In this document: positions 14,156 through 31,325 of the stretch, in pieces
How positions within the stretch are numbered: the stretch's first letter is position 1
Layout of the letters: every line of letters begins with the position of its first letter
From: an uncultured Gammaproteobacteria bacterium
GTDB lineage: Bacteria > Patescibacteriota > Patescibacteriia > UBA9934
NCBI GenBank assembly: GCA_964599455.1
Contig: CAZREA010000004.1
Span: 1,628 to 65,627 of the forward strand
Direction: 5' to 3'
DNA: 64,000 bases
Made by a program: the position numbers and the translations under genes
The notes under the pieces: generated by a model
The model's database searches: none
What the model was told of the DNA's origin: nothing
The model's input: the letters and a program-made list of their open reading frames with translations, nothing else

Positions 14156-14308
14156 AGTGCTGTAGAGACGGGGTGTCTTGTCCTGACGATAGGAAGGATG
14201 ACCCGTCTTTCAGGTGGTGCATGTGAGTGCACGTTCATCGTCCGTCAGTATACCAAAATAAAAATCGCCTCCCGATTGCTCGAGAGACGATTTTCTGAAG
14301 AAATATCC

Positions 14309-15157
14309 TTAGTTAATGACAACCTCGCAATCCTCAACATAAATCGCACCGGTGTTTACGCTGTCGTAGCCATCGTAGAAGCTATACGTTCCTTCTTCGC
14401 TAAAGCGCTTGACGAAATCATCACCTGCTTGGAGCGTACCGCTGCCCCAGGTGAGATCATCGGCAGTAACGGTGTGCTTGTCGTCACCATCGTTGGTGAA
14501 ACGAACCGTTTGATCAACGCAAATCGTAACGTCGATAGGATCGTAGCCGTCGTCAGCGATGCTGATATTTTCGGGTTCAATCAAACCTTTATCGTCATCG
14601 ATGGTGTAAGAAGTATCGGCTTGCGCGATTTCATCTTCAGCGATGCTTGCACTTACTTCGCGGTCAGTTAGGGTGTAGTTGGCGAAGAAGCCATCCGGAA
14701 CGTCATCAATATCTTTGTTCCAGTTGCTGCCGTAAAGCGTGGTTGCCATGGTTTCGGAAGCAACCCAGTAGAGTGCGCCATCCTGGCCAACGAAGTAGGT
14801 TTTTTCGTCAGAGTTGATTTTGATCATGCGGACACCCGGCTTGTAGGTGACGTTGCCACCGATTTGGATATCGGCCAAACTCGCATCGGAAATGGTGATG
14901 ACATCCGAGAAGTCGGGATTGCCACTTGAGTCCGAGTACCAGGTTTTGTAAGTCTTTTCGTTCGGAAACACATAGCGGAACCCATCGGCGCCCATATAGT
15001 ACACGGCCGAAAAGGTAGTGCCGCGAATAAGATCACCTGCAGAAACGGTTGTTGCTGCACGCGTGGTGGCGATTGAGGTGCCAAACATGCCGGCAATGAC
15101 CAAAGTCATGACCGCACTGGCAAAAAAAGAAGAGCGAAGAGAAGTCATAGAATACAA
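14309..15157 (-). CDS. secreted protein with C-terminal cupredoxin-like beta domain
   Basis: Signal peptide; C-term 'VRFTNDGDDKHTVT' cupredoxin-like pattern without a full copper-ligand set. Confidence 0.4.
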   Translation of the reverse strand: MYSMTSLRSSFFASAVMTLVIAGMFGTSIATTRAATTVSAGDLIRGTTFSAVYYMGADGFRYVFPNEKTYKTWYSDSSGNPDFSDVITISDASLADIQIGGNVTYKPGVRMIKINSDEKTYFVGQDGALYWVASETMATTLYGSNWNKDIDDVPDGFFANYTLTDREVSASIAEDEIAQADTSYTIDDDKGLIEPENISIADDGYDPIDVTICVDQTVRFTNDGDDKHTVTADDLTWGSGTLQAGDDFVKRFSEEGTYSFYDGYDSVNTGAIYVEDCEVVIN

Positions 15158-15162
15158 AAGAA

Positions 15163-15855
15163 TTATAGCACAACTTTGGCGGCATCAAGCAAGTCATCAT
15201 GTGCATCTTCGGGATGTGGGTGTTGCCACAGTGCTGCGCCGCAGACACAGCGGTTTGCACCTGTTTCCGCGAGCGATCCAATATTATCGCGCGTCACGCC
15301 GCCATCAAGTGCGATATCGAGATTGGGAAAGAGGACTCGGGTCCGACGAATTTTCGCTAAAATCGGCTCTCCAAGAAAAGCTTGGCCCGAGGCACCCGGA
15401 TGCACGCTCATGAGCAGGACCTCGTCGATATGTTTTTGATACTTTTCGAGATGTTCGATCGGTGTTTCGGGATTGAGCGCAACCGTCCGATCAAGCTTCA
15501 GGATTTCCACTTGCTCAAGAATTGTTCCGAGTGGTCGGGCAATTTCCTGATGCAGAATTACTCGCCGCAAGCTTGCTACATATTTATGCCAGGCAACAAC
15601 ATGAAGAAAGGGATTTTCAGACATTATGTGAATTTCGATTTCGGGTAAATCAGGCCACGATCCGATCATTTCCGGATCAGCCCAGCTGGTGGCGTTAAAC
15701 AGGGTTCCATCAAGAATATCAATATGGAATCGTAGATTCTTCCGATGAAGTCCTGGATGGAAAAGCTTTTCGCGGCATTCTTGTTCGTTTTTGGCGAGAA
15801 TGGATGGGGTGATAAGCATATGTTCTTTATGTTCCCAATTCGTCCATCTGTCCAA
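15163..15855 (-). CDS. rpe: ribulose-phosphate 3-epimerase
   Basis: 'MSVHPG..GQ.F' and 'DGGV' motifs; GGAGG SD before the track start. Confidence 0.8.
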   Translation of the reverse strand: MDRWTNWEHKEHMLITPSILAKNEQECREKLFHPGLHRKNLRFHIDILDGTLFNATSWADPEMIGSWPDLPEIEIHIMSENPFLHVVAWHKYVASLRRVILHQEIARPLGTILEQVEILKLDRTVALNPETPIEHLEKYQKHIDEVLLMSVHPGASGQAFLGEPILAKIRRTRVLFPNLDIALDGGVTRDNIGSLAETGANRCVCGAALWQHPHPEDAHDDLLDAAKVVL

Positions 15856-16273
15856 TCCTCCGTTTATGTCGTTCGGCTTCAGAAAACGGCGTTGTTAAAA
15901 AAGTTTCTACTAGCACAAACGGATCGTCATCGGTCGTGATGCGAGTCGGAATGCACAAAATATTCGCATCATCATCATTGCGCATCGCCTGTACTGCCTC
16001 TTGCGAAAACCCTACGCCCGCACGAATCCCGGAAAATTTATTGGCTGCCATGCACATGCCCTCAGCACTTCCACAAACAAGAATGCCCATGCTACCGGGA
16101 TGATTCTGTGCGGCATGTGCTACTCGTGCCGCATATTCTGGGTAATCGTCGTCAGGATCGTTTTGATACGCGCCAAGATCTTCAACGATCATATCTCGCA
16201 ACCGCAACGAATCTGCAATCGCATTTTTAAGTGTGCGACCGGCGTGGTCGGCACCGAGGAAGATGGTGGGCAT
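15827..16273 (-). CDS. rpiB: ribose-5-phosphate isomerase B
   Basis: 'LVCGSAEGMCMAANK' RpiB/LacAB signature. Confidence 0.85.
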   Translation of the reverse strand: MPTIFLGADHAGRTLKNAIADSLRLRDMIVEDLGAYQNDPDDDYPEYAARVAHAAQNHPGSMGILVCGSAEGMCMAANKFSGIRAGVGFSQEAVQAMRNDDDANILCIPTRITTDDDPFVLVETFLTTPFSEAERHKRRIGQMDELGT

Positions 16274-16440
16274 AGTACGAATATTACCTTTTCACTTAAA
16301 GCATATCATCACGCATTCGTTAAAAACATCGTATTAAAGGTATTTTGATATACTTTTTGAGGATGATGTATGTTATTAAGATTATTTTATAGAATCAGCC
16401 GAAGTTTGCATTTGCGTTAAAGAAGTAGAGATACGAGCCT

Positions 16441-17382
16441 ATGACCTTTATCTTGGCGGCAAATCTAAGCGATCGCATTTTACTAGCGACCGACACGGTG
16501 GTCACGCGCCTGTCGGCTGACGGATCCCGAGGCGTCGTCTGTTACTACCCTAAATTGCAGCACTTTTCTAACGGTAATAACACCCAATTCGTAAGTTTTC
16601 TATTTGCCGGAAACCTCGGGTACGCGCGTTTCCTCTCCCGCAAGATTTCCGGCGCATTAGATGAGGGTCGATTGCCATGCGATATAGTCGATCTACAGCG
16701 CGAAATTCCTAGCTTTATTACAGATTTTTCGACAGGATATCCTGATAAGAAAAAGGCGACCTTCATTGTCGCTGGCAGGACGTACGATGGCTCGCTTGAT
16801 TTAGTAGATTTTGGGCGATTTTCTGAAATTATCGGTCCATCCGCCGGACAGGTGACCGACCCAGTGATGGTCGCCGCTCTCCAGATGGCCTCGAAAATCG
16901 GGGGTCTCGAGAAATGGAACGGCAGAGTGCCCGTCATGTTGCCCAGACAAGCAATCTTCAGAGTGTCGATTGACGAGAATAAAAATGTTTTCGAAGTGAG
17001 CGACTTGCTGGGCAAGCATCAGATGATGACAGCGGGCACGCGTCTGCTGACGCGTGAGGAAGAAAATAAGCTCCTGCGCTTTTTCCTCGATAAACGTGCA
17101 ATCGAGGTAGAAGGAAAGGATCTGGTCAACTTCATGAGAAACCAGTTTTCTGACTCGATCGGAGGTGCTGTTATGCTCGGGTATATTGATGGACGAGAAG
17201 GCGTATCTCCACTACGTTACGTTGGTTACGAGCTCGACAGGAGTTCCGGAACCAACTCGGACAAAAACTGGTCATTCCGGATTACGGATGGGAAATTTAT
17301 TGCCGTCAGCCCCAATAACGAGGAGATCGATCTTCTTACAAGTCACTATGAAGAAGCGGCGGAGGGGGGTCTTGAGATTTAA
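16441..17382 (+). CDS. hypothetical protein (313 aa), possibly Ntn-hydrolase-like
   Basis: ORF only; N-term 'ILAANLSDRILLATDTVVT' loosely proteasome/HslV-like. Confidence 0.4.
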   Translation: MTFILAANLSDRILLATDTVVTRLSADGSRGVVCYYPKLQHFSNGNNTQFVSFLFAGNLGYARFLSRKISGALDEGRLPCDIVDLQREIPSFITDFSTGYPDKKKATFIVAGRTYDGSLDLVDFGRFSEIIGPSAGQVTDPVMVAALQMASKIGGLEKWNGRVPVMLPRQAIFRVSIDENKNVFEVSDLLGKHQMMTAGTRLLTREEENKLLRFFLDKRAIEVEGKDLVNFMRNQFSDSIGGAVMLGYIDGREGVSPLRYVGYELDRSSGTNSDKNWSFRITDGKFIAVSPNNEEIDLLTSHYEEAAEGGLEI

Positions 17383-17549
17383 CCCGAGTTTTACGTGTCT
17401 AACGATATCAACCCCTTTCTTACTCTTTATTGTTGGTTTTATTGATGAGGTAACACGCGTGGTCTACGAACGAAGCTGCGAGCGTCCCGAGTACCATCCC
17501 TTCATCTCCTCTTCACCCCTCCCACCCCTTCCTGTATGCTGTTCCTACT

Positions 17550-20456
17550 ATGCCCGACACTACCGCCCCCCAGCGATCACCTCACTCGCAAGACGAAGTA
17601 AATCTTTTGGAATACTGGGAAAAACACCAAATTTTTGAGCGTTCGGTCAATGAACGCCCGGAAGCAAAACCCTATACATTTTACGATGGTCCGCCGTTTG
17701 CCACCGGTTTGCCGCATTATGGGCATATTGTTGCGAGCGTCATGAAGGATGTGGTGCCACGTTTTTGGACCATGCGCGGTTATCGAGTTGAGCGTAAATG
17801 GGGCTGGGATTGTCATGGTTTGCCGATCGAAAATATTGTCGAGAAAAAGTTTGATTTCAAATCCAAAAAAGATATTGAAAATTTTGGCATCGGCAAATTC
17901 AATGAAACGTGCGAGTCGGTGGTTTTGGATTATGTCGAGGATTGGAAAAAGGTCATTCGTCGATTGGGTCGTTGGGTCGACATGGAAAATGCCTACAAAA
18001 CCATGGACTTGCCGTTCATGGAATCCATTTGGTGGGTGTTTAAAACCATGTGGGAAAAAGGGCTTATTTACGAAGGCTACAAGCCCATGCACATCTGCCC
18101 TCGATGCGAGACCACGCTGTCAAACTTTGAGGTCAGTCAGGAATATGCCGATGTCACCGATATTTCAGTCACGGTCGCGGTCAATCTGACGAGTGGCCAC
18201 CATGAAGGCGCAAAAGTATTAGTGTGGACCACTACGCCATGGACCTTGCCGGGAAATGTATTGATTGCTGTCGGTGCAGACATGGAATATGCGCTCGTAG
18301 AAATGGAAGGGGAAAAATATATTCTCGCTTCATCATGTGTCGAGCGTGTGTTTGCGGGAAAATTGTATAAAGTCATGGAAACGTTTTCGGGTTCAACGCT
18401 CATCCATGCAACCTACGACCCAATCTTCCCGTACTTCCTTCATCACGCCAATGCATTCCGTGTTGTTTCGGCCGATTTTGTTTCCGATGAAGAGGGAACG
18501 GGGATGGTGCACATCGCTCCTGCATACGGAGAAGATGACATGCGTTTGGGCGAAGCAGAAAAAGTGGCACCTCTTTTTCATGTCAAAATGAACGGTCATT
18601 TTATACCGGAAGTATCTGAACCGCTTGAAGCCGAGGGATATCGTGTTGGCGAAGTGCCCGTGAAGGCAAAGGGAGCATATAGCGAAATAGATATTCAAAT
18701 CATCAAATGGCTCGCACATCACGGAAAACTTTTTGCCAAAGAAAAGCTCGTCCATAGCTATCCGCATTGCTGGCGTTGCGATACGCCACTTTTGAACTAT
18801 GCAACCCATTCTTGGTTTGTGCGGGTGTCGAGCATGGTTGATGATTTGGTGAAGAATAACGAGTCAACACATTGGGTGCCGGCAAACATGAAATACGGCC
18901 GTTTTGGCAAACGTCTCGAAGGCGCACGCGATTGGGCAATTTCGCGTTCACGTTTTTGGGGAACACCGTTGCCGGTTTGGCGGGCAGAAGATGGAGAGAT
19001 TCTCGTTATTGGCTCAAAAGAAGAATTGGAGAAATATGTGGGGCATGCGGTCACGAATTTGCACAAACATGTCATTGATTCTTTAGCGATCGAGAAAGAC
19101 GGCAAAATCTATCGTCGTATTCCTGAGGTTCTTGATTGTTGGTTTGAAAGCGGATCAATGCCGTACGCGCAGCTTCACTATCCTTTTGAAAATAAGGAAG
19201 GATTCGACAAGAAGTTTCCTGCAGACTTTATTGCTGAAGGACAGGATCAAACCAGTTTATGGTTTTACACGCTCCATGTCATTGGTAATGTGCTTTTTGG
19301 CAAACCCGCGTTCAAGAATGTGATTGTCAACGGGATTGTATTGGCGGAAGATGGAAAAAAGATGAGTAAGCGTCTAAATAATTATCCTGACCCGATGATG
19401 GTGATGGAAAAATATGGTGCTGATGCCGTGCGGTATTACCTAATGTCAACACCGGTAGTGTCGGCAACGGATTTACGTTTTAGTGAATCAGGTGTGGAAG
19501 AAGTGGGGAAAAAATTCATCACGATTTTGCGTAATGTCGTTTCGTTCTACAAATTGTACGCTGAGCATGACGACTATCGTTCGCCGAGCAATAAACATGT
19601 TCTTGATGCGTGGATTGTTGCTCGACTGAACGAGACGCTCGAAGAACAAACACGCGCCATGGAATCGTATGAACTTGATCATGCTGCTCGTGTGTTGCAA
19701 ACATTTGTTACTGATCTTTCCACGTGGTACGTGCGCCGCTCACGCGATCGCATGAAGACCGAAGGCGATGATCGCATCGAAGCGCTTGCAACCTTGCGCT
19801 ACGTTTTGGAAATGTTCTCAAAGATGCTCGCGCCCTTTATGCCGTTTTTGGCCGAGATGATCTATCGTGAGATCGGACAAAAATCCGAAGGTGCATCGGT
19901 ACACTTGGAAACCTGGCCTGTCACTGTAAAGACAGTCGGGTCGGTCGTCTCTGGGGACGTACTCGAGCAAATGGGTATCGTCCGCGCGCTGGTATCTCGC
20001 GCCCTCGAAGTTCGTGAACAAGCAGGAATCGCCATTAAACAAGCCCTTGGTGAAGCAACGCTCTCGGTGCCCTCCGGCGATTTTGCGGACGCATACGTAC
20101 AAGTTTTTTGTGATGAACTCAATATCAAAAAAGCAACCGTACAAAAAGGAGATCTTGGCGTAACGCTAAATCTTGCCCTTACTCCCGAACTTTTGCGCGA
20201 AGGTATGGCTCGTGAAATTACGCGCAAGATTAATGGTATGCGCAAAGAGGCAGGGTTGAGTATTCAGGATCGCATTAGTGCCGCGATTTTTTCGGACAGC
20301 GACGAGGTTAACGTGATGCTCGACGAACACGGTGAATCATTACGTGTCGACATTCTTGCGACCGAGTTGCACTTTGGCAAGCATGATGATTGGGAACACG
20401 TCGCTTCGTTCCGTGTAAATGAAATTGATGTGTGGATTGGGTGGACGATAATGTAG
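17550..20456 (+). CDS. ileS: isoleucine--tRNA ligase (type 2)
   Basis: 'PPFATGLPHYGHI' HIGH region; 'WGWDCHGLP'; 'KMSKR' KMSKS; 968 aa. Confidence 0.9.
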   Translation: MPDTTAPQRSPHSQDEVNLLEYWEKHQIFERSVNERPEAKPYTFYDGPPFATGLPHYGHIVASVMKDVVPRFWTMRGYRVERKWGWDCHGLPIENIVEKKFDFKSKKDIENFGIGKFNETCESVVLDYVEDWKKVIRRLGRWVDMENAYKTMDLPFMESIWWVFKTMWEKGLIYEGYKPMHICPRCETTLSNFEVSQEYADVTDISVTVAVNLTSGHHEGAKVLVWTTTPWTLPGNVLIAVGADMEYALVEMEGEKYILASSCVERVFAGKLYKVMETFSGSTLIHATYDPIFPYFLHHANAFRVVSADFVSDEEGTGMVHIAPAYGEDDMRLGEAEKVAPLFHVKMNGHFIPEVSEPLEAEGYRVGEVPVKAKGAYSEIDIQIIKWLAHHGKLFAKEKLVHSYPHCWRCDTPLLNYATHSWFVRVSSMVDDLVKNNESTHWVPANMKYGRFGKRLEGARDWAISRSRFWGTPLPVWRAEDGEILVIGSKEELEKYVGHAVTNLHKHVIDSLAIEKDGKIYRRIPEVLDCWFESGSMPYAQLHYPFENKEGFDKKFPADFIAEGQDQTSLWFYTLHVIGNVLFGKPAFKNVIVNGIVLAEDGKKMSKRLNNYPDPMMVMEKYGADAVRYYLMSTPVVSATDLRFSESGVEEVGKKFITILRNVVSFYKLYAEHDDYRSPSNKHVLDAWIVARLNETLEEQTRAMESYELDHAARVLQTFVTDLSTWYVRRSRDRMKTEGDDRIEALATLRYVLEMFSKMLAPFMPFLAEMIYREIGQKSEGASVHLETWPVTVKTVGSVVSGDVLEQMGIVRALVSRALEVREQAGIAIKQALGEATLSVPSGDFADAYVQVFCDELNIKKATVQKGDLGVTLNLALTPELLREGMAREITRKINGMRKEAGLSIQDRISAAIFSDSDEVNVMLDEHGESLRVDILATELHFGKHDDWEHVASFRVNEIDVWIGWTIM

Positions 20457-20511
20457 GGATCAGGCATACCTGATCCCAAAAGAAAAAAACGGACCAAGAG
20501 TCCGTTTTTTT
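20456..20511. terminator. tandem hairpins after ileS (second is a bidirectional intrinsic terminator)
   Basis: GGGATCAGGcataCCTGATCCC, then A-run ACGGACcaagagTCCGT T-run. Confidence 0.6.
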
Positions 20512-20526
20512 ATAGATCCGAAAACG

Positions 20527-20712
20527 CTATTCATCAATCCCTTGTTTATTCAGGGCATCATTTCTTAGAATTTCTTGAACTTTTTTTTGAGCGTCTGGAA
20601 GAAGACTCGCGATATCTCTAGTGACATCCTTTATATTATCCGGTGGTTGAGTATTGGGAGTTCGTTCTTGTGGTTTTGGTGCTTGAATCCTAATTATTTT
20701 TGAATCGCTCAT
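20527..20712 (-). CDS. small hypothetical protein (~61 aa from internal Met)
   Basis: ORF only; lies between ileS and the ileS-end duplicate. Confidence 0.3.
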   Translation of the reverse strand: MSDSKIIRIQAPKPQERTPNTQPPDNIKDVTRDIASLLPDAQKKVQEILRNDALNKQGIDE

Positions 20713-20885
20713 AGGATAATAGTAAAGATATAAATTATAGAATAAAGTATACTCCAATATTGTAATTTATAAAAAAGCTGATTTAATTAACAAAACTGCG
20801 GCAAAGGTTGTCATTGAATGCGCAACTTCATGTGCATACTAATGGCAACAACGTGTTTAGCTCATATTCAAGGGGCCGATCGGGT

Positions 20886-20928
20886 GAGTGAAATTGATGT
20901 GTGGGTAGGATTGAAGCAAGATGCGTAA
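20886..20928 (+). other. duplicated ileS 3' end (encodes ..SEIDVWVGLKQDA*)
   Basis: 16/16 nt identical to ileS 20420-20435 and in-frame homology to NEIDVWIGWTIM*. Confidence 0.6.
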
Positions 20929-20940
20929 AAAAAACATGAG

Positions 20941-20971
20941 CGCGGCCGATCTCCGAGAGGTCGGCCGCGCA
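20941..20971 (-). terminator. GC-rich intrinsic terminator H1 after paralog A1
   Basis: GCGCGGCCGA-loop-TCGGCCGCGC, T-run on minus strand. Confidence 0.6.
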
Positions 20972-20991
20972 CGTCGTTGATAGAGGTTGGT

Positions 20992-21576
20992 TCAGATCTC
21001 GTCGGGACGATCGATTCCGAACTTGGCCTGTACGGCCCTGACCCGTTCGGTGAGCTTGATGATCTCCTCTCGGCTGGAGAAGCCGTCGATCGTGAAGTCG
21101 ATGTCCTCTTCCAACAGGAGCTTGAGCATCCTGATCTCGCGCTCGAGCCCGTGGGCCAAGAGCTGTGCCATCGGGTCTTCCGGAGTATTCACCAGGGAGT
21201 CGAGCATGCTCTCAACCTTCTCCTTGTAGGTGAGCGGGACGGAGGACGAGCGCCTGCGTCGTCGCAAGAGTTTGCTCAAGCGGTGCAGCAGGTTCCAGGG
21301 GATGGCGTCCGCCAGGAAGAGGAGAAGCTTCAGCCTGCGGGACTTTGCGTAGGCTACTCCTATCACACCGTGGTTGACCTCGAACAGGCCGACGTCCTCG
21401 TCGTGACTGTTCCAGACGATGTAGATGCCGTCTGGCAGCGCGTCGGTGTCCGCGGTGCTGATGATGACCCCGTTGTGCTGGATATCTACGTTGAAGTTCC
21501 CGTGTTCGCCCCGCCGCCGTACGCGATAGGAGCCAGGGTTCAGGACTCTTCGGCGATCACCTGTTCTCTCGTTCAT
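20992..21576 (-). CDS. GC-rich cassette gene A1 (194 aa); shares N-terminal domain with A2 and A3
   Basis: GAGGAG SD before internal ATG; 'SYRVRRRG..LPDGIYIVW..GLFEVNHGV' N-domain; GC-rich. Confidence 0.55.
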   Translation of the reverse strand: MNERTGDRRRVLNPGSYRVRRRGEHGNFNVDIQHNGVIISTADTDALPDGIYIVWNSHDEDVGLFEVNHGVIGVAYAKSRRLKLLLFLADAIPWNLLHRLSKLLRRRRRSSSVPLTYKEKVESMLDSLVNTPEDPMAQLLAHGLEREIRMLKLLLEEDIDFTIDGFSSREEIIKLTERVRAVQAKFGIDRPDEI

Positions 21577-21757
21577 GGCACTCTCCTCAATGTACGGGTG
21601 ATTGGTGGTACTTGACGACAGTTCTTTGTCGTCACCTTTTATCTTCCTTTTTGTAAAGAAAGGCAAAAGGTGACGTTGAAGCAACGGAAGATAGTAGAAA
21701 AGACCGGAGATTTTGTAAAGGAGAGAGGAAATCAAGAAGAGGAGTCCCATAAAAACA

Positions 21758-21795
21758 GTTCGCGGTCGATCCCAAGAGGAATCGACCGCGTGAAC
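21758..21795 (-). terminator. GC-rich intrinsic terminator H2 after A2
   Basis: GTTCGCGGTCGAT-loop-ATCGACCGCGtGAAC, T-run on minus strand. Confidence 0.6.
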
Positions 21796-21807
21796 GAGAG
21801 GTTTCTT

Positions 21808-22269
21808 CTACGAAGGTGCGTGCGCAGACTCGTTGCCGAGCTCGGCCTCATGGTTGGGGGAGCGCAGAAGGGTGTCGAACGGACTTCTGGTGGACAGTGC
21901 GAGCTCCTCGAACACGCCTTGGCCCTCCTCGTCGTCCTCCACCACTCGCAGGGACGGCCGGGGTCTGCCGACCACTTGGAGTGCTGGCCCTTGGCCTTTG
22001 CCACCCTGGATGAGTCGTGGTGGGTAGCTCGACGTCGAGCGCACCTCCTCGTTGCTCTTGGCGTTGCGCGGTACACCTCCGACCACCGCGAACGTCCCGA
22101 CGACCACCTGGTCCAAATAGAGGACCTCGTAATCTCCGTCGAGAAGCGGGCGCGAGCACTGTGTGACCCGCCCACTCCTGTACTCGATCGTGACGCGAGC
22201 GATTCCTTTGCTCTCGTCTCCCCGCGGCCGTACTCTGTAGACTCCTGACTTCTCAGCTTCTGTAGTCAA
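21808..22269 (-). CDS. GC-rich cassette gene A2 (153 aa), TTG start with GGAGG SD
   Basis: 'VYRVRPRG..PLLDGDYEVLYLD..GTFAVVGGVP' N-domain shared with A1 and A3. Confidence 0.55.
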   Translation of the reverse strand: MTTEAEKSGVYRVRPRGDESKGIARVTIEYRSGRVTQCSRPLLDGDYEVLYLDQVVVGTFAVVGGVPRNAKSNEEVRSTSSYPPRLIQGGKGQGPALQVVGRPRPSLRVVEDDEEGQGVFEELALSTRSPFDTLLRSPNHEAELGNESAHAPS

Positions 22270-22387
22270 CTCAGCCTCCGCTTTGCGTTCATTGAACGCG
22301 TCAGGTGAATAGTTATCGTCTTAAGGACGGCGCATCTTACACGCAAAAGATGTTTTTTGTAAAGGTTTTTGGCTATAAAAACATAAC

Positions 22388-22417
22388 GCGGTCGACTCTC
22401 CGAAGAAAGTCGACCGC
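22388..22417 (-). terminator. GC-rich intrinsic terminator H3 after A3
   Basis: GCGGTCGAC-loop-GTCGACCGC, T-run on minus strand. Confidence 0.6.
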
Positions 22418-22501
22418 ACGAAGGGTGAGTTGCCTGCAGCGGTCAGGCGTCGCCGACCTCCTTTCTGGGGTGTAGTGAGCGATGGGGGAAGTAGTTGTTG
22501 C

Positions 22502-23221
22502 TCAGTCCGGGGTGGAGTCTTGCTCGACCGGTTCGTCCTCGATCTCGACGGTTGGCTCGGACTCCTGCGAGGCTGCCTCGCTGGTGCTCGAGGTCGGGAA
22601 CTCGGTCGCCTTGAGGGCGTCGAGTCGTCCCAGGAGCGTGTCGAGGTCCTCCGGGCTGCTGAAGCCGGCGGTTTTGAGCACGTCCTGATAGCCCTCGCTC
22701 TGTTTGCGGATCTCTACGGCCAACTCGCGGAACGGAATCATCATCGCCTCGAGCCCCTCCATCGTCCGCGACCAGTCCTGTACCATCTCCTCGATGAGTC
22801 TCGGCTCCAGCTTTTGTATCTTGCCGCAGTGGGGGCAGGACTCGCCTTTCGCCGCCGCCGCGAGCATCTCCAGGGGCATGAGCTTGCGCTCTGCCCACTG
22901 CTTCCAGGAGGATGGTTCACGCTTACCGCCTGCGCTGAAGCGCAGGAACACGACAGGACCACCTGCCAACAGCAGGTCCAAGTCGAGCTCGGCCCTTCTG
23001 TACAGCCGCCTTGCCTGACCGGGCACACCGTTCTGCACGGTGAAGCGGCCGATCTGCGTTCCCTCGTAGAAGATATCGTAGTCCCCATCCGTGAGGGGGG
23101 ACTCGCCAGTGGAGAAGATCTCGGCGGTCTGGCTGTCGATCTCGACCGGAATGATAGCCTCCTGGCCCTGCAGACCGACCATGTAAGCGGAACGGGTGGG
23201 TTGTTGTTGGGGTTCGGACAA
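22502..23221 (-). CDS. GC-rich cassette gene A3 (~239 aa; start chosen at TTG with GAGAGG SD; track start 23311)
   Basis: 'AYMVGLQG..PLTDGDYDIFYEG..GRFTVQNGVP' N-domain; C-terminal 'CPHCG' and acidic tail. Confidence 0.5.
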   Translation of the reverse strand: MSEPQQQPTRSAYMVGLQGQEAIIPVEIDSQTAEIFSTGESPLTDGDYDIFYEGTQIGRFTVQNGVPGQARRLYRRAELDLDLLLAGGPVVFLRFSAGGKREPSSWKQWAERKLMPLEMLAAAAKGESCPHCGKIQKLEPRLIEEMVQDWSRTMEGLEAMMIPFRELAVEIRKQSEGYQDVLKTAGFSSPEDLDTLLGRLDALKATEFPTSSTSEAASQESEPTVEIEDEPVEQDSTPD

Positions 23222-23278
23222 GGTTGCCTCTCTCAGCCCGTGTGGGCGTTTGGTGATTGGTGCGTGGACAGCTTTTTC

Positions 23279-23331
23279 TTCGCCGTCACTTTCTGCTTTT
23301 GAAGCATTCAAGTTCAGAAAGTGACGGCGAA
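23279..23331. promoter_or_regulatory. perfect 17-bp inverted repeat (TTCGCCGTCACTTTCTG / CAGAAAGTGACGGCGAA, 19-nt spacer)
   Basis: Sits about 60 nt upstream of A3 and between divergent genes; operator-like or hairpin. Confidence 0.4.
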
Positions 23332-23429
23332 AAACTGTTCTTTTTAGCGAAAAATCTCCTTTTTGTCAAACTCCGTCCCAAAACATACAGCAAAAATCAG
23401 CCCATATCGTACAATGAACAAAGAAAACT

Positions 23430-24269
23430 ATGAAAGACATCTCTTCCCATCTCCTGTTGTGTACGACCAACGACCCCGAATCTCTGCTTATTACCAAGAT
23501 TGCTCGGGCGCTTTTTCTCCCGATTCTTTCTTCTGCTCAACAACACGGTGCCCGTCTGAGCCAAGAATCTCATCTTTTTGATCGCGTTCGAGAAATGACA
23601 TCAGAAGCGAAAACGATCGTCATTGTAGAAATTCCTGGTCCCGATGAAGAAGGCATACTGAGAAAGGCGGGATATGAAGTGGTGATTATCGATCATCACA
23701 CCTACCCCAATCTCAATCGCATGCAGCCGCAATCGTCACTTGAACAATTTTTGCATTATTTTGAAATTTCCGACGAGAATTTGCTTGGTGTTGGATTTGA
23801 ACCGTATCTGGTAAAAGGTGTGGGTTGCATTGATCGCGGTTTTTTGTGGGAATTACAAAAAGATGGCTATAGCGATGAAGAGGCGCGACAGATTCGAGAA
23901 TATTACGTTGCACTTGAACGAGAAGTTGATCCGCGGTTTACCGAAGTCATGCAGATTGCGAAGGAGGCGTGGGAGCACAGAGAGTTACACGAAGGTATTT
24001 GGATTATTCGTTCATCGCATCAACAGGTGCATATTCGCAATGCAATTTCATTTTTGTTTGCCGATGCCTTTCCTCACGAAGCACCACCGGCGATTATCGT
24101 TGAGGGTGACGGCAAAATCACATTACAAGATCATGATCGTGCCAAGGAATTCTTTACTGCTTACGGCGGTTATCTTTTTGGAATGGAAACATGTTGGGGC
24201 ATAACGCCAGAGATGGGTGTCGTCCCCACCGTGGACGCTCTTTTGGCCAGACTCAGCGACATACGCTAG
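23430..24269 (+). CDS. hypothetical protein (279 aa)
   Basis: ORF only; 'VVIIDHHT' is weakly DHH-like. Confidence 0.45.
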   Translation: MKDISSHLLLCTTNDPESLLITKIARALFLPILSSAQQHGARLSQESHLFDRVREMTSEAKTIVIVEIPGPDEEGILRKAGYEVVIIDHHTYPNLNRMQPQSSLEQFLHYFEISDENLLGVGFEPYLVKGVGCIDRGFLWELQKDGYSDEEARQIREYYVALEREVDPRFTEVMQIAKEAWEHRELHEGIWIIRSSHQQVHIRNAISFLFADAFPHEAPPAIIVEGDGKITLQDHDRAKEFFTAYGGYLFGMETCWGITPEMGVVPTVDALLARLSDIR

Positions 24270-24282
24270 AATTGTCGTAGCT

Positions 24283-25050
24283 ATGCCGACAGATATTCAC
24301 CAGACGTTGTCCAAGCTTGGTCTTACCGATGCTGAGGCGCGCATGTATCTTTCTTTACTGAAATTGGGGACGCAACCCGTACAAAGTATTGCGCGTGAAG
24401 CGCGTGTTTCGCGCACGGCTGCGTATGACGTCATTTCCTCCCTAATTAAAAGAGGACTGGTTGCTTCTACCACGCAAAGTATGAAACGCGTGTTTGTGGC
24501 TGAAGATCCGGAGAAATTGGAATCGTATTTTTTGCAACGCGCCAAAAGTTTTGAAACTGAACTCGAAACTCTGCGCCGCTTGATGCCGGAAATGCGCGTG
24601 CTGCAAGGAGGTCTTGATGCAAAACCGCGGGTGCGCTTTTTGTCGGGAATCGAAGGTTTCAAAGCGTTGTTTCGCGATGTCGAAATGGTCGCACCTAAAG
24701 AGCTTTTAGAAATCTCCAATATCGATACTGTATACAAATATCTCGATCGCGCCATTTTAGAAGAGGCGCGCTCCGTCATTAATTACGAACGAACGAGCGT
24801 GAGGCTGCTACATGCGGGAAAATTGTTGCGCAAATCACCTCACGCGCAGTATCGCACCATGACCGGACCCTTTTTAGATTTTCAGGGAGATGTGTGGATT
24901 TATGCCAATCGTGTAGCGATGTTAAATTATGTTTCGCGCATCGAGGTGGTGTTACTCGATCATCAAGTGTTTGCTGATACCTTACGCGCGCTCTTTTTTA
25001 CGACGTGGCAGCAGAGTGCCGAATCAACCCTTGAACAACAAACTTTGTGA
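24283..25050 (+). CDS. TrmB-family transcriptional regulator (start moved to internal Met)
   Basis: N-terminal wHTH 'DAEARMYLSLLKLG..VSRTAAYDVISSLIKRGLV'. Confidence 0.55.
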   Translation: MPTDIHQTLSKLGLTDAEARMYLSLLKLGTQPVQSIAREARVSRTAAYDVISSLIKRGLVASTTQSMKRVFVAEDPEKLESYFLQRAKSFETELETLRRLMPEMRVLQGGLDAKPRVRFLSGIEGFKALFRDVEMVAPKELLEISNIDTVYKYLDRAILEEARSVINYERTSVRLLHAGKLLRKSPHAQYRTMTGPFLDFQGDVWIYANRVAMLNYVSRIEVVLLDHQVFADTLRALFFTTWQQSAESTLEQQTL

Positions 25051-26066
25051 CGAAGTTTTTTCTTCATTGGCTACAGGATGAAATCATGATCCCGCTCTAT
25101 CAAAAGCGAGCGAGTGATACTTTGGATAGCATGCGCACCATTGGAGAAATTGATGCGTTGTGCGTTATTCCACAAAGCCCACCGCATCATGCGGAAGGCG
25201 GAACGATCTCAGCGCATCTTTTGCGTGCGCTCACTGCTCTTGAAGGCATTGCTGCGGGTGTATCGATATTGTTTGTTGAAGAATTTGTCCGTGAACGACA
25301 ATTGGAAGGTTTCTTTTTGCGCCTGGAAAAAACGATCAAAGAAAATACTCCTCTTTTGCGCGCCTATATTCTTTGTCACGACTTAGGCAAACAAGATACG
25401 GCAACACACGACGGTACTTGCTGGCATTATCCGCAGCATGCCCATGTAGGTGCAGCAGAAGCGTATGCAGCGGTGCGCAGTGAAATATTGTCGCGTTGTG
25501 GTGTGGAGGTTGCGCATGCAAAAATGCTTCGTGAACTCGTTCGTTATCACATGCAAATTATTGCGCGTATCGAAAAAACCGATAATGTGGCTCTTTTGCA
25601 TTTTTTAGAAAACGCCGCGGATCGTCAGGGAATACACACCAAGCGCTTTTTGGCATTACTGCCCGCGTGCCTGTTTCTTGATGCCATTTGCGGCAGTCTT
25701 ACAAAACAAGAGGAGCAAGAATCAGCGCAAACGTCTTTGCTGATCGCCTACGCTAAAGCTGAGCGTGAAGCCTGTCCTTCGCAGGCGATTGAGGATAATT
25801 TGTTGATTACCCGCAAACGCCGAACGCGAGTTCGAGAGATTTTGCGAGGGGAAGGATTGGATTTTGAAGAGATATTTAAACTGTTGCACACACCTTTTGG
25901 TGAAGCGCGCGGTCCGGTAGCTCGAGCGCTTACGCGATATATCAAGAACATTGCTGATGACCAAGACGCGGCAGTGATTGGGATCGAATACGCAGAAATA
26001 ATCGCTGAGCGGGCAGCCGAGGTTCGTCGTCGATTGGAAGAGGAGGGGTTGTTAGGATATGTGTGA
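25047..26066 (+). CDS. HD-domain phosphohydrolase-like protein
   Basis: 'ILCHDLGK' HD motif and additional His clusters. Confidence 0.55.
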   Translation: MTKFFLHWLQDEIMIPLYQKRASDTLDSMRTIGEIDALCVIPQSPPHHAEGGTISAHLLRALTALEGIAAGVSILFVEEFVRERQLEGFFLRLEKTIKENTPLLRAYILCHDLGKQDTATHDGTCWHYPQHAHVGAAEAYAAVRSEILSRCGVEVAHAKMLRELVRYHMQIIARIEKTDNVALLHFLENAADRQGIHTKRFLALLPACLFLDAICGSLTKQEEQESAQTSLLIAYAKAEREACPSQAIEDNLLITRKRRTRVREILRGEGLDFEEIFKLLHTPFGEARGPVARALTRYIKNIADDQDAAVIGIEYAEIIAERAAEVRRRLEEEGLLGYV

Positions 26067-26487
26067 TTTTCCTATGCTCATTCGCAAAAGCGCCCTCCTC
26101 CTCCTTAATCCCGACTCAACGCAATTTTTAGTTACCCGAAAAAACGACAGCACGGTGACTGACTGGCTGCTGCCCGGCGGGACGATTGAAGAAGGGGAGA
26201 CGTTGATCGACGCGTTAGTGCGAGAAATTTGGGAAGAATTGCAATGCGAAGTCGATAAAACAGGTATTGAATTGATTGGCGAATACGAAGCGCCTGCTGC
26301 CGGTCGTCCGGGGCAAATTGTGCACATTACGCTTTTCCGAGCAACGATTGCTGGTACTCCACGTGCTTCGTCGGAAATTAAAGAATTAGGTTGGCTTTCG
26401 AAAGAAGATGTGACGAATCCCGAGGCAAGTGAAACGATTCGATTGCATCTGATTCCCGATTTGGTGAAACGTGGCATTCTTTTGTAA
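26059..26487 (+). CDS. Nudix hydrolase
   Basis: Nudix box 'GGTIEEGETLIDALVREIWEELQ'. Confidence 0.75.
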   Translation: MCDFPMLIRKSALLLLNPDSTQFLVTRKNDSTVTDWLLPGGTIEEGETLIDALVREIWEELQCEVDKTGIELIGEYEAPAAGRPGQIVHITLFRATIAGTPRASSEIKELGWLSKEDVTNPEASETIRLHLIPDLVKRGILL

Positions 26488-26500
26488 GATGTAAGGGAGT

Positions 26501-27043
26501 ATGTTTGCATATCTTGAAGGTAGTGTTGCTGTCGTTGAACTTGATGCAGTTATTGTTGATGTTCAGGGTATTGGGTATCGGGTATTTACCGCACGACTTG
26601 ATGTTGCGGTTGGTGAAACGCGGCGATGGCATATTGTGGAGATTATTCGCGAAGATCGACATGATTTGTATGGCTTTCTCTCCACCGACGAAAAAGTACT
26701 TTTTGAAACCCTGATTGGCGTGCAAGGTGTTGGGCCAAAACTCGGCACCAAAATTATGAGTGCCGCTGTGGCTGATGATTTGCGTCGACATATTCTCACG
26801 AGCAACGTTGATTTTTTTGTCGGTATTAGTGGCGTAGGAAAGAAGACCGCGCAGAAAATTATCTTAGATTTGAAAGGTGTGCTCGTTGATCCTGGTGCGG
26901 GCATTGTCCATGATGAAGTCGCTGATGCCTTGGCGGCATTTGGATATACGAAGGATGATATCGCCGCCGTGATTCCACATTTGCGAGAAAAAGATTTGGC
27001 ATTGCGAGTGAAAGAGGCATTGAAAATGTTAGGAAGAAAATAA
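26501..27043 (+). CDS. ruvA: Holliday junction branch-migration protein RuvA
   Basis: Domain I 'GIGYRVF', domain II HhH 'GVGPKLG / GVGKKTAQKI', domain III. Confidence 0.85.
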   Translation: MFAYLEGSVAVVELDAVIVDVQGIGYRVFTARLDVAVGETRRWHIVEIIREDRHDLYGFLSTDEKVLFETLIGVQGVGPKLGTKIMSAAVADDLRRHILTSNVDFFVGISGVGKKTAQKIILDLKGVLVDPGAGIVHDEVADALAAFGYTKDDIAAVIPHLREKDLALRVKEALKMLGRK

Positions 27044-27055
27044 AAAAAACATCTT

Positions 27056-27997
27056 ATGGACGCCGCATCATGGGATCAACACGTGGCGCAATTTGCCCCG
27101 CCGTTTGGCGCGTTTTTGCAATCATGGGCCTGGGGCGAGGTGCAGATGTTGTTGGGTTTTCCTGTGAAAAAGATTTTTCGAGAAATTGATGGCAAACATA
27201 TTGTTGCACAAGCCATTTGGCAACCGTTGCCGCTTGGCACTTCGTATTGGTTTCTTCCCAAGGGTCCGCTCGGTGATGCGGATTCTCAGGCCATGTTGGC
27301 GGTTTTAAAGGAGGAATTATCCGACGGTGCTTTTATGAAACTTGAACCCACGCATGTTCCTGCTGATGCTCGGTACGCCGATGAACGACATCCCGCGCAC
27401 ACGGTTATTGTTCCGTTACAGGCTGATGCAGAAATGATGCTTGCTGCCATGAAGCCCAAGACCCGTTACAACATTCGTCTTGCGCAAAAGAAAGGTGTGC
27501 AGGTTGAATATGCTGATGCGTCGCAATTGGAGCGGTTTTTGCGTTTGATGCGAGTAACTGCCAAGCGTGATGGCTTTCATTTGCACACTGCAGATCGGTA
27601 TCGTGCGATTGTGGAGAAATTTTCTGGTAATAACTGTCGCGCCTTTCTTGTTTTTGCCACGTATGAAGGGAAAGATCTTGCCGCCAACATGATGATCGAT
27701 GCCTTTGGTACACGAACATATTTGCACGGCGCTTCGTCGAACGAAGACCGCGATGTGATGGCGCCGTATGCATTGCATTTCGCATTAATGCGCGACGCGG
27801 CACAGCGCGGATTGCACGCCTATGATTTTTGGGGCGTTGCGCCCGAAGATGCGGACGCTTCGCATGCCTGGTTGGGCATCACGCGCTTTAAGCTCGGCTT
27901 TGGTGGCGAGCGCATCAGTATGCCGGGAACGTTTGATGTGCCAATTTCCAAAATGAAATACGGCATCTACACCCTTGCACGAAAAGTTCGTCGATAG
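27056..27997 (+). CDS. FemAB-family peptidoglycan interpeptide-bridge peptidyltransferase-like protein
   Basis: FemX-like GNAT-fold duplication; ~310 aa. Confidence 0.65.
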   Translation: MDAASWDQHVAQFAPPFGAFLQSWAWGEVQMLLGFPVKKIFREIDGKHIVAQAIWQPLPLGTSYWFLPKGPLGDADSQAMLAVLKEELSDGAFMKLEPTHVPADARYADERHPAHTVIVPLQADAEMMLAAMKPKTRYNIRLAQKKGVQVEYADASQLERFLRLMRVTAKRDGFHLHTADRYRAIVEKFSGNNCRAFLVFATYEGKDLAANMMIDAFGTRTYLHGASSNEDRDVMAPYALHFALMRDAAQRGLHAYDFWGVAPEDADASHAWLGITRFKLGFGGERISMPGTFDVPISKMKYGIYTLARKVRR

Positions 27998-28404
27998 AAA
28001 ATAAAAAATCCCGAATCTCGGGATTTTTTATTATGGCTTTTTTGGTCCTCCTCGACGATGTTTTTTCCTGAAGTTGCTGCTAAATCTTTATAAGAAGGCA
28101 CGGGTGCAGATGATGTAGGAAGAATATTTTCAGTATTTACATCACCGTCGCTTGGTTCAACGAATCTATCAATAAAGTCTTCTTGATCAAGCCCATCATA
28201 TAATTTGAATCCTAGTGGAGTAAGTCCGCCCTCAAGAAGGTCTTTTAGCATTGTACGTTTTGTTTGAAGAGTGGCGCTCTGCCATGACACGGGGAATCCT
28301 TCTGTTGCATACTGCCTGGCAACTCTCTCTATACGTTCTTCGTCCATTGTTTTAACTTTACTTGCTAAAGATTCTTTTTCGATTATTCCTCTTGAGATTT
28401 CCAT
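27967..28404 (-). CDS. hypothetical protein (doubtful: ORF reads through the terminator hairpin)
   Basis: ORF only. Confidence 0.25.
   Translation of the reverse strand: MEISRGIIEKESLASKVKTMDEERIERVARQYATEGFPVSWQSATLQTKRTMLKDLLEGGLTPLGFKLYDGLDQEDFIDRFVEPSDGDVNTENILPTSSAPVPSYKDLAATSGKNIVEEDQKSHNKKSRDSGFFIFYRRTFRARV
28003..28031. terminator. bidirectional intrinsic terminator
   Basis: AAAAAATCCCGAatctCGGGATTTTTT. Confidence 0.65.
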
Positions 28405-28478
28405 AGGGATAATATTTTAAAGCTAGAATAGGAAGAAGTATATCGAAGTAAAGGATCTATTCACAGTGTAAAAAGATT

Positions 28479-28509
28479 GACGCCCGGCCTCACGAGGAGG
28501 TCGGGCGTC
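28479..28509 (-). terminator. GC-rich intrinsic terminator H4
   Basis: GACGCCCGGCCtcacgaggaGGTCGGGCGTC, T-run on minus strand; near-identical stem to H5. Confidence 0.6.
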
Positions 28510-28515
28510 ACGGTT

Positions 28516-29781
28516 TTACGCCTTCACTTCCGCCGAGTTGCGGATGGCGGTGGAGCTGATGTCCCACCGCCCTTTGATCTCGACGAACAGATCTTCGTAG
28601 CCTTCCGGGATACCGACGTCCCGCAGCGTTTCGAACCGGTTGCCGTTGGCCCGGCCCGCCACGTAGAACTTCGTTCCGAGCTCCCGGAATCGCTGACAGA
28701 TGTCTGCCGGCGTCAGGTCCTCGGTGCAGAAGTTCGGGTCGAGGAGGCGTCGCAGGGTGTCGACCCCCACCAGGAAGCCGACACTGGGGAAGAGAGCTGC
28801 TTTCTTGAGATAGATGCCCGCTTCCTTCAGCACGATCACGGCCCTACGACCGAAGAAGGTGCTGACTCGTCTGGCCATCTCGTCATCTGGCACCATGCCT
28901 TTGACGGGGTGGTCGGCGTTGAGCTGGCACACGACCTCCATGCCGGTCTGTTCCTCGCAGGCTCGGGCCATGGCTGCGTGGCCGCGATGCCAGTCATTGA
29001 ACGATCCGGCAAAGAGGATGTGTTTTTTGCCGTCGATGTGGTCGAGTCCGTAGCGGCTGCCATCCGGCCAGTAGACCGGCTCGCGGTAGAGCGTGCTCGG
29101 TTCGATTTTCGGTTCGATGATCCTCGGCCTGAGTACACAGCCGCCTTCGGTTCCCGTGATGTTCCCCTCCTCGATGAGGTCATCGTCCAGAGGGATCTGC
29201 GGCAGTCCAGCGGCGAACAGCAGGAGGTTGAGGCCGATGAGATCGACCTGGTCACCCTGTCGGTTGCGGACTTCTGCTCGCTGGCGAAAGGCCTCATCTT
29301 CATCTATCGGCTGGTTATGTAGCTTGTGGGTCTTGAAGAAGCCCACGTGCACGACCAGGAAGAAGTCTGGCAGGCGCAGGGCCACCCAGACCTCGTCGCT
29401 GCCCTTACGATCTTCACGTTTGCCATCCTTCTCGCGCTCGGTGGCCACACTGGCGGTTCCACCGAGACCAGCGGGCGTGCCCGTTCTGCTTTCGGCCTTC
29501 ATGATCTCGATTGATGTCTCGAAGGCTTGCTGAGCCATGGCCATTGCGGTCTCGCGAGCCACGGACTTGGGGACGCGGCGACTCAGGAGGTCGCCGAGGG
29601 CGTGACCGGCGTAAGGCAGGCCGCCGTTCAGGATGAGCCCGCTGCATCCGGGCACCTGCCACAATATCTTCTGCAGCCCTGCGCCCGCGCCGGTCATGTC
29701 GAGGGTCAGGCGCAGCGGGATATTGGTCTTGAGGAGGGCGAGCACGGCCTTGAAGGTGGGGGTTTTGGTGATATGGGGCAC
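28516..29781 (-). CDS. fusion protein: unknown Gly-rich N-terminal domain plus C-terminal NMN/NaMN adenylyltransferase (NadD/NMNAT family); GTG start with AGGAG SD
   Basis: 'ILFAGSFNDWHRGH' (HxGH nucleotidyltransferase) and C-terminal 'ISSTAIRN'; N-domain 'DMTGAGAGL..LNGGLPYAGHALG' unassigned; GC-rich. Confidence 0.55.
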   Translation of the reverse strand: MPHITKTPTFKAVLALLKTNIPLRLTLDMTGAGAGLQKILWQVPGCSGLILNGGLPYAGHALGDLLSRRVPKSVARETAMAMAQQAFETSIEIMKAESRTGTPAGLGGTASVATEREKDGKREDRKGSDEVWVALRLPDFFLVVHVGFFKTHKLHNQPIDEDEAFRQRAEVRNRQGDQVDLIGLNLLLFAAGLPQIPLDDDLIEEGNITGTEGGCVLRPRIIEPKIEPSTLYREPVYWPDGSRYGLDHIDGKKHILFAGSFNDWHRGHAAMARACEEQTGMEVVCQLNADHPVKGMVPDDEMARRVSTFFGRRAVIVLKEAGIYLKKAALFPSVGFLVGVDTLRRLLDPNFCTEDLTPADICQRFRELGTKFYVAGRANGNRFETLRDVGIPEGYEDLFVEIKGRWDISSTAIRNSAEVKA

Positions 29782-29930
29782 GGGAACTCCTGTTGTGATG
29801 TGAGTGTGATATGAGTTATGAACGAAGACTTTTCGAAAAATGCTCGCCGAAGCGAGGAAAGAAGGTAACAAAAAATTGACCAAAAGTCAATTTTCCTCAG
29901 TAATATTGGCAATAAGATTTGTACAAAAGA

Positions 29931-30022
29931 AAACAGCGCACCCTCAGAGTCGGCAGGAGCGTTTCACCCCGGGGGTGTTGGCTGTTTTCCTGTCGTACTC
30001 GACCCCGCAAGTCGGGGAGGGT
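29931..30022 (-). terminator. large GC-rich multi-hairpin 3' element after 30034..30459
   Basis: Outer 10-bp stem GCGCACCCTC/GAGGGTGCGC enclosing CACCCCGGGGGTG and CCCCGcaagtCGGGG; T-run on minus strand. Confidence 0.45.
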
Positions 30023-30033
30023 GCGCACGTTTG

Positions 30034-30459: not shown

Positions 30460-30568
30460 GACATCTCCTGTTGTTCGAAGGCGGAAGGTGTTCGAAAGCA
30501 ACCGTGAAGTATGGCATAAAATCTCTTTTTTGTCCAAAAAGTTTCAAAAGATATAAGAAAAAAAAGTT

Positions 30569-30600
30569 AACGCCCGGCCTCTTTGCAGAAGTCGGGCGTT
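30569..30600 (-). terminator. GC-rich intrinsic terminator H5
   Basis: AACGCCCGGCCtctttgcagaaGTCGGGCGTT, T-run on minus strand. Confidence 0.6.
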
Positions 30601-30636
30601 ACGGTTGTGTGAAGTGGGATGTGGCGATGATGAAGC

Positions 30637-31173: not shown

Positions 31174-31325
31174 GTGGTCCTCCTCGTCGATTGATGTGGG
31201 ATGTCGTCAGCAGTCGACGCACAAGACTATCCATTTTTCTTTTTCTTGTCCATTTGCTTGTGTGATGAAGAAACAAGAGGGAGTTTGTGCACATATTGTC
31301 CACAGGTTCGTGGTAAAATAGTGAC

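Follow-up and report, generated by a model that had tools for sequence, protein, structure and literature searches.

A second, variant ileS 3' end flanks a 469-bp orphan-gene segment in a Candidatus Uhrbacteria-like genome

The stretch of DNA considered here, referred to as the window, comprises 64,000 nt of contig CAZREA010000004.1 and comes from a Candidatus Uhrbacteria-like organism (Patescibacteria). It carries ileS, the gene for isoleucyl-tRNA synthetase (IleRS) of an uncultured Uhrbacterium, and the last ~15 codons of this gene are present a second time downstream in a slightly different version. An AT-rich segment with a single small orphan gene lies between the two gene ends, called copy 1 and copy 2 in the following. 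The elements of this arrangement are, in order:

17550-20456, plus strand: ileS, the target gene, an open reading frame (ORF) of 968 amino acids (aa), of the type with a DUF5915 C-terminal domain (Pfam tRNA-synt_1, Anticodon_1 and DUF5915).
20412-20456, plus strand: copy 1, the functional ileS tail RVNEIDVWIGWTIM and its stop codon, ending in GW where the family has GF.
20420-20435, plus strand: first copy of a 16-nt exact identity block, a candidate crossover or junction.
20456-20477, plus strand: hairpin with a 9-bp stem that overlaps the final base of the ileS stop codon (folded region z = -5.65).
20483-20511, both strands: bidirectional intrinsic terminator made of A7, a hairpin with 12-bp arms and T7, recognised by folding and by an inverted repeat that is 100% complementary.
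20527-20712, minus strand: 61-aa orphan gene convergent to ileS, the cargo of the putative insert.
20713-20880, no strand assigned: AT-rich region upstream of the 61-aa gene, including a minus-strand promoter-like site (20773 to 20746), then unassigned DNA to the copy 2 junction.
20881-20928, plus strand: copy 2, the putative displaced ileS tail relic RVSEIDVWVGLKQDA and its stop codon, which holds the second 16-mer (20889-20904) and is host-like in composition.

The ileS reading frame closes with CGT GTA AAT GAA ATT GAT GTG TGG ATT GGG TGG ACG ATA ATG TAG, encoding RVNEIDVWIGWTIM, and copy 2 reads CGG GTG AGT GAA ATT GAT GTG TGG GTA GGA TTG AAG CAA GAT GCG TAA, encoding RVSEIDVWVGLKQDA in frame. 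Both contain the 16-mer TGAAATTGATGTGTGG, which sits in a 34-nt direct repeat (20412-20445 and 20881-20914) with 27/34 identical positions (79%) and a spacing of 469 nt. An earlier note on this DNA had described a second, variant in-frame ileS 3' end sharing 16/16 nt with the first; the sequence reads as described, except that the string quoted for copy 2 starts at 20884 and not at 20886, an offset of 2 nt. The 16-mer is not a common motif: with up to two mismatches permitted it occurs at these two sites only in the whole window, and none of 100 dinucleotide shuffles held two or more matches to it.

Copies 1 and 2 both match the C-terminal motif of the IleRS family, (F)RVxExDxxxG[F] followed by 0-8 aa. 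A six-frame motif scan finds this motif once in the ileS of each relative, apart from one duplication (L019/L036) described below. Copy 2 thus fits a family-wide motif and is therefore a true homologue of the ileS tail rather than a chance match. Upstream of 20881 there is no homology beyond chance, whether by nucleotide local alignment (P = 0.48) or at the protein level (P = 0.5-0.9). The two copies agree at 26/33 nt, while either agrees with any relative at 24 or fewer, and they are separated by three synonymous and three conservative changes (P = 0.07).

Metagenomic assembly makes strain mixtures possible, and a contig that fused two strain variants of the ileS end would carry such a pair. 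Two Logan assemblies (SRR16481182 and SRR16481183) are, however, 100% identical to the window over 14181-30456 and show the occupied state only, and equivalent structures were assembled independently in other organisms. A 16-nt match is also expected to fall below the k-mer length of assemblers. An artefact of this kind is hardly credible.

The 469-bp segment between the copies contains the new ileS tail, the hairpin, the bidirectional terminator, which is common to ileS and the convergent gene, the 61-aa orphan gene and its promoter-like site. This is the small ORF with AT-rich DNA that had been noted before in the interval. GC content at the first, second and third codon positions (GC1/2/3) is 0.55/0.34/0.23 in the 61-aa gene versus 0.56/0.37/0.49 in ileS; by the third position in particular, the segment is compositionally foreign, and it is orphan. 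The 61-aa protein has no homologue among 5.8 billion proteins (self matches only) and no Pfam or PHROG match, and its AlphaFold2 model consists of a disordered N-terminus and one helix at residues 25-56, with a predicted local distance difference test score (pLDDT) of 73. Positions 20713-20880 resemble neither ileS nor the locus of any relative, and no Rfam family was found in the insert by searching the region and the whole window. Neither the 61-aa protein nor the proteins of the GC-rich island described below matched anything in viral contigs, in phage and plasmid BLAST searches, or by tblastx against all fetched loci.

A regenerated ileS end and a displaced fragment flank the segment as direct repeats, which is the arrangement by which integrative islands are recognised. 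The portion of copy 1 past the 16-mer (20436-20456) probably came with the insert. The traits of a transposable element are absent: the repeat measures 34-48 nt at only 79% identity, no transposase is present, and the sole inverted pair near the segment ends is A/T-rich low-complexity sequence. Written out by sequence, the empty site would be …CGTGTAAATGAAATTGATGTGTGG joined to GTAGGATTGAAGCAAGATGCGTAA, and the circle junction would be …GGGGCCGATCGGGTGAGTGAAATTGATGTGTGG joined to ATTGGGTGGACGATAATGTAGGGATCAGG, which can also be written …GGGGCCGATCGGGTGAG-TGAAATTGATGTGTGG-ATTGGGTGGACGATAATGTAG….

Downstream of copy 2, the locus continues with a second body of DNA and then with a conserved gene:

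20940-20970, minus strand: GC-rich terminator hairpin of the first island gene, an inverted repeat.
20992-23311, minus strand: GC island 1, outside the repeat-bounded insert; its three paralogous orphan genes stand in tandem and each have hairpins of their own.
20992-21750, 21808-22269 and 22502-23311, minus strand: the three island genes, of 252, 153 and 269 aa, respectively.
23430-24269, plus strand: p279, a conserved 279-aa gene at the right edge of the hotspot, with tblastn matches in 22 loci; it directly follows ileS in several relatives.

The context of ileS was compared across 27 related Uhrbacteria and Patescibacteria loci (GTDB). The window IleRS is 50-73% identical to those of these loci and of 11 metagenome loci. 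The gene order rpiB, ileS, p279, trmB-like and p339 is conserved. The gap between ileS and p279 measures 3-117 nt in L006, L007, L009, L010 and L018, 0.2-6.8 kb in the remaining loci and 2974 nt in the window. Since the two genes lie close together in five relatives, the 469-bp segment and the GC island are both inserted DNA. Read from the gene order, the ileS-p279 junction is a general insertion hotspot in which direct adjacency is ancestral. Its other occupants include SET-domain, AAA_33, speD/speE and YecM genes, tRNAs, and orphan genes of high GC3 (0.95 in L012). Imperfect direct repeats right past the ileS stop codon bracket the inserts of L003 (10881-12944; 54 nt, 93%), L012 (10900-12635; 57 nt, 89%), L024 (10943-13871; 74 nt, 89%) and L027 (10925-11960; 186 nt, 85%). 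The four inserts hold ordinary accessory genes, with high-GC3 orphan genes, SET, AAA_33, speD/speE, or a duplicated tRNA as cargo, and the repeat unit of L003 is also found in L005, at another position.

The opposite flank of ileS shows variation of its own. Between rpiB and ileS, the window has a 313-aa gene (16441-17382) with no Pfam match and no tblastn match in the 27 related loci, and in several relatives rpiB lies ~100 nt upstream of ileS. The upstream flank thus also carries lineage-specific DNA.

GC-rich DNA starts ~12 nt past the copy 2 stop codon, so the duplicate does lie at the edge of GC island 1, as had been noticed. The further claim that the scar borders the island as an element does not hold. 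The repeats bracket the 469-bp segment. The island, situated past copy 2, is without flanking repeats of its own, and no third repeat was found at its far end by searching for the 16-mer with two mismatches, by seed-9 repeats, by blastn-short self-comparison or by a six-frame motif scan. The boundary is corrected accordingly: the scar does not delimit the island. None of the relatives compared has the same arrangement downstream of ileS.

The island genes have GC1/2/3 of about 0.6/0.4/0.75, with GC3 between 0.73 and 0.77. High GC3 with ordinary GC1 and GC2 marks the minus strand as the coding strand, and codon-position GC together with paralogy indicates that the minus-strand ORFs are the real island genes. 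Automatic gene calls for 20977-23311 differ on strand between two public assemblies (L001 and L002). The encoded proteins have a common N-terminal beta domain of ~60 aa, predicted at a pLDDT of about 80, whose fold has no PDB match with E below 0.6. The 269-aa protein matched only itself among 5.8 billion proteins, as did the 252-aa protein among 1.8 billion representatives, and PHROGs gave nothing useful for the island proteins. The A-run that begins at the copy 2 stop codon (TAA) is the minus-strand T-run of the island terminator. This tight fusion suggests that the island already stood beside an ileS end that was then functional, and the island is probably a separate, earlier insertion in the same hotspot.

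The same fusion can be read with the polarity reversed. Copy 1 and the small-gene region would then be resident, and copy 2 would have arrived with the island, at the left end of a fragment whose source was a relative with the island directly after ileS, anchored in p279 and joined illegitimately at 20880/20881. Besides the fused stop codon and terminator, this reading draws on the lack of repeats around the island and on the high-GC3 orphan genes that directly follow ileS in L003, L012 and L014; for the window it costs neither more nor fewer events than the preferred reading, and it would restore the link between duplicate and island drawn in the earlier note. However, the 469-bp segment is itself foreign in composition and orphan, and copy 2 is host-like rather than island-like. 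In the transketolase case described next, moreover, the analogous reading costs an extra event, as copy 2 and the DNA downstream of it match an uninterrupted site, with 42 nt identical. Reversed polarity is rather unlikely.

Parallels to the window were sought by a six-frame motif scan and by comparing the last 16 residues of each long ORF with its downstream DNA. Two independent cases were found:

L019, 4340-4885 (the same as L036, 7900-8440): second ileS tail duplication, copies 493 nt apart, with a co-directional 135-aa orphan ORF between them.
L010 (DOZH01000003.1), minus strand: last 20 codons of transketolase (transketolase-N) repeated 1288 nt downstream, with a cargo ORF at plus coordinates 586-1698.

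The IleRS of L019/L036 is 52% identical to that of the window. Its tails are FRVAEQDVTVGFKRCSI upstream and FRVAEQDVMVGFVEG 493 nt later, each followed by a stop codon, and eight of the nine differing codons are synonymous (P<5e-5). Copy 2 agrees with the nearest relative, L020, at 28/33 nt and copy 1 at 21/33, the tails ending in GFVEG (copy 2) and GFVGE (L020). At L045 (5947-6400), a 47%-identical homologue of the L019 cargo stands directly past ileS with no relic. This is the donor type of arrangement, one that would transfer an ileS tail together with the neighbouring gene; no recombinase domain was found around it.

The transketolase copies of L010 differ at 14 nt and at no amino acid (P<5e-5), and the cargo is a single AAA_14-DUF4143 gene with its own promoter-like site. 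Copy 2 and the terminator that follows it correspond to the uninterrupted single-copy site of L009, with 8/63 nt differing within copy 2 and all 42 available nt past the stop codon identical. With L009 as outgroup, the baseline divergence of 12% equals the differences seen, so the comparison leaves a reciprocal crossover and one-sided recombination indistinguishable. In each of the three cases, the insert measures 0.47-1.3 kb and holds a single gene, with different cargo each time. Their identity blocks are unlike in length, with 16 nt in the window, 8 nt in L019 (its longest, at the repeat edge) and 8-11 nt in L010, and unrelated in sequence.

The parallel copies differ mostly at synonymous sites and are therefore the tails of two functional alleles, one of each pair transferred, and not decayed local duplicates. 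This bears on the simplest account of the window, a local tandem duplication of the ileS end after which the spare copy diverged. In keeping with such an account, the copies form an in-frame direct repeat at a spacing of 469 nt, and no relative is as similar to either copy as they are to each other. Homology nevertheless does not reach beyond 34-48 nt in either direction, the DNA between the copies has a foreign composition, and a decaying spare copy would not differ almost only synonymously, as the parallel cases do. Local duplication, already disfavoured, is very improbable.

A more serious contender is site-specific integration, in which the copies would be attL and attR, the attachment (att) sites of an element targeting the ileS 3' end, either decayed to 469 bp or mobilised in trans as a miniature cassette. 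In integrase-borne islands that regenerate the 3' end of a target (tRNA, tmRNA or protein genes), the regenerated end and the displaced fragment mark both insert ends (Islander principle, PMC4383910). The window shares this classic signature: the insert supplies a functional gene end, the displaced, putatively native fragment lies at the far end, and the direct repeat has an exact 16-nt core within a longer imperfect repeat. The left repeat edges of the window and of L019 also coincide almost to the codon in ileS, and a recombinase could act in trans, as 64 kb of the genome are in view. Unlike such islands, the insert here measures 469 bp and has one 61-aa gene; as stated in the earlier note, there is no integrase, with no recombinase domain in 37 window ORFs (Pfam) or in precomputed Pfam calls across 1-30456. 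On both sides of the core lie diverged coding homologues rather than a conserved att arm, the core has no palindromic recombinase-site architecture as read from its sequence, and the parallel cases have unrelated cores with no common motif, the longest block in L019 being only 8 nt. Three inserts are unlikely to have decayed independently to the same minimal single-gene state, and the cargo family of L019 stands beside ileS without a relic in L045. Tail duplications of this kind recur across lineages, but neither the cargo nor the identity blocks correspond, which speaks against a single dedicated site-specific recombinase. An integrated element of this kind is unlikely, though it retains a real chance of being correct. 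Of the earlier proposal that an inserted element had replaced the gene terminus, the regenerated end with its displaced variant stands, while integrase-driven insertion fits poorly with identity blocks and cargo that vary between lineages.

The reading favoured here, by a little better than an even chance, is that a foreign 469-bp segment recombined into the ileS end, replaced its tail and displaced the native one, guided by homology or microhomology and with no integrase of its own. It is preferred because three single-gene inserts occur without a recombinase, their identity blocks are unrelated, L045 presents a donor-type arrangement, the junction is a general hotspot, and Patescibacteria are competent. 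Natural competence has been shown or proposed for these bacteria, which exchange genes mostly among themselves (PMC10633639, PMC12455944).

The identity of the native copy, the order of events and the enzymology are what we infer from these observations. Copy 2 is most likely the original ileS 3' end. The AT-rich foreign segment would have entered the last 15 codons of ileS and supplied a homologous but different tail (…IGWTIM), the hairpin, the bidirectional terminator and the convergent 61-aa gene with its promoter-like site. The native tail would thereby have been shifted downstream to its place beside the GC island, as a relic that no longer codes. The 16-nt identity would mark the join between the incoming and the resident ileS sequence. 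The donor may have been DNA of a related Uhrbacterium, with long ileS homology as the presumed anchor. The potential anchor measures 2.9 kb, and copy 2 has the identity block at its left edge or close to it, with 16 nt in the window and 8 nt in L019. The segment could have entered by homology-facilitated illegitimate recombination, or a circular fragment could have been taken in through a single crossover.

Several observations weigh against this model. Genome and metagenome scans gave no relative, and no empty site, above 73% IleRS identity, so that insertion and polarity are not directly shown; exact-protein look-ups for closer relatives returned the same organism only, and two further look-ups gave no matches. 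The window copies are closer to each other than to any relative, which leaves the native copy undecidable from sequence, and the synonymous bias between them is only suggestive. Between the window and L019, the left edge of the repeat is offset in ileS by one or two codons at most, which could point to site specificity; a small permissible target could also explain it, since in the ancestral order only about 100 nt at most separate the ileS stop codon from the start of p279. The identity tracts, at 8-16 nt, are shorter than RecA-type crossovers generally need. An att site, too, can show a 16-nt common core with diverged similarity around it, and p279 could equally have anchored an incoming fragment made up of copy 2 and the island.

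The junction at the same conserved codons in the two ileS cases could further be taken as the mark of a homing-type mobile ORF, whose nuclease would cut the conserved FRV region of ileS, repair then copying in a foreign tail and the mobile gene. The cargo domain DUF4143 of L010 presumably belongs among nuclease-like folds. On the other hand, the window cargo is a single-helix protein of 61 aa encoded on the opposite strand and is no nuclease, and the 135-aa cargo of L019 has no endonuclease domain, which makes homing very unlikely. The anatomy is nonetheless that of the gene hybrids formed by mobile endonuclease ORFs in fungal mitochondria, in Allomyces atp6 and in Glomus atp6, atp9, cox2 and nad3 (PMC3630166), which are the closest anatomical analogue. 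Both consist of a gene core, an inserted foreign C-terminus, a single ORF and the native C-terminus, with termini that are similar in protein and diverged in DNA. The fungal cargos, in contrast, are LAGLIDADG or GIY-YIG endonucleases, while no nuclease is detectable here, the setting is a bacterial chromosome, and the window cargo gene lies on the opposite strand.

Other known systems resemble the window in part. Rhs and contact-dependent inhibition (CDI) polymorphic toxins undergo C-terminal displacement and leave 'orphan' modules. There, too, a new C-terminal end is inserted with a linked small gene, and the old end persists further downstream, together with part of the conserved motif that preceded it. 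Here, in contrast, the gene affected is that of a housekeeping aminoacyl-tRNA synthetase, toxin and immunity domains are absent, and the protein changes by only about 5-7 residues. Homology-facilitated illegitimate recombination is known from work on natural transformation in Acinetobacter and pneumococcus. Both it and the favoured reading involve foreign DNA acquired from a relative, with extended homology at one end, for which the ileS body would serve here, and a short identity at the opposite junction. The junction identity of 16 nt, however, exceeds the usual 3-10 nt. The term is also used in PMC6382021. Nothing relevant was found in the literature on ileS as a known integration site.

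If the favoured reading holds, an essential synthetase of an ultra-small uncultured bacterium had its last codons replaced together with the arrival of a tiny foreign gene, without an integrase, in a process that recurs in related lineages. Gene-tail pairs differing at synonymous sites would then be a marker for orphan-gene exchange among reduced genomes. A broader conjecture, which we regard as rather unlikely, is that Patescibacteria harbour recombinase-less single-gene 'tail-swap' cassettes that insert near the 3' ends of essential genes, within the last 15-20 codons (ileS on two occasions and at nearly the same codon, transketolase on one), each with a synonymously recoded tail and each leaving the native relic behind, moved by a trans-acting nuclease or recombinase or by competence-linked recombination. 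Were this true, the cassettes would be a bacterial counterpart of the fungal mitochondrial gene hybrids. The main interest lies in the recurrence among Patescibacteria, which can be surveyed at scale; the window itself is a modest case of gene-transfer scarring.

Two further tail matches stand apart from these cases. In L006 (9653-10250), the tail of a ~690-aa gene (…WAGPDYRWDAGSQFVFRLRKFTQPKL and stop) appears again 418 nt downstream, with a nucleotide identity of about 85% and differences in amino acids; it looks like a paralogous or decaying duplicate and not a synonymous-only tail pair. An antisense tail match in L028 is not interpretable as a duplication.

Other GC-rich patches of the window (28470-31330, 38874-39860, 43897-45102 and 58317-58805) hold ORFs with GC3 of 0.68-0.85, mostly with no Pfam match and unrelated to the island 1 proteins. 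In GC island 2, near-identical GC-rich terminator hairpins (28470-28514 and 30560-30604) lie behind minus-strand genes. Part of the GC-rich stretch near 43 kb is explained by a class A bacterial RNase P RNA (42876-43373, 111 bits).

An element of ~105 nt occurs twice, at 1947-2051 and 6435-6540, with 90-92% identity and a distance of 4488 nt. It forms one long imperfect hairpin (-48 kcal/mol, z = -7.2) and has no Rfam match. The second copy lies directly 3' of tRNA-Ala (6350-6425), and the two copies enclose a somewhat GC-richer gene block. A protein with a type IV secretion pilin domain is encoded at 52274-53803. Finally, a tRNA-Ile with anticodon TAT lies at 55921-55997, and tRNA-Ile(TAT) is also found within the hotspot insert of L003.

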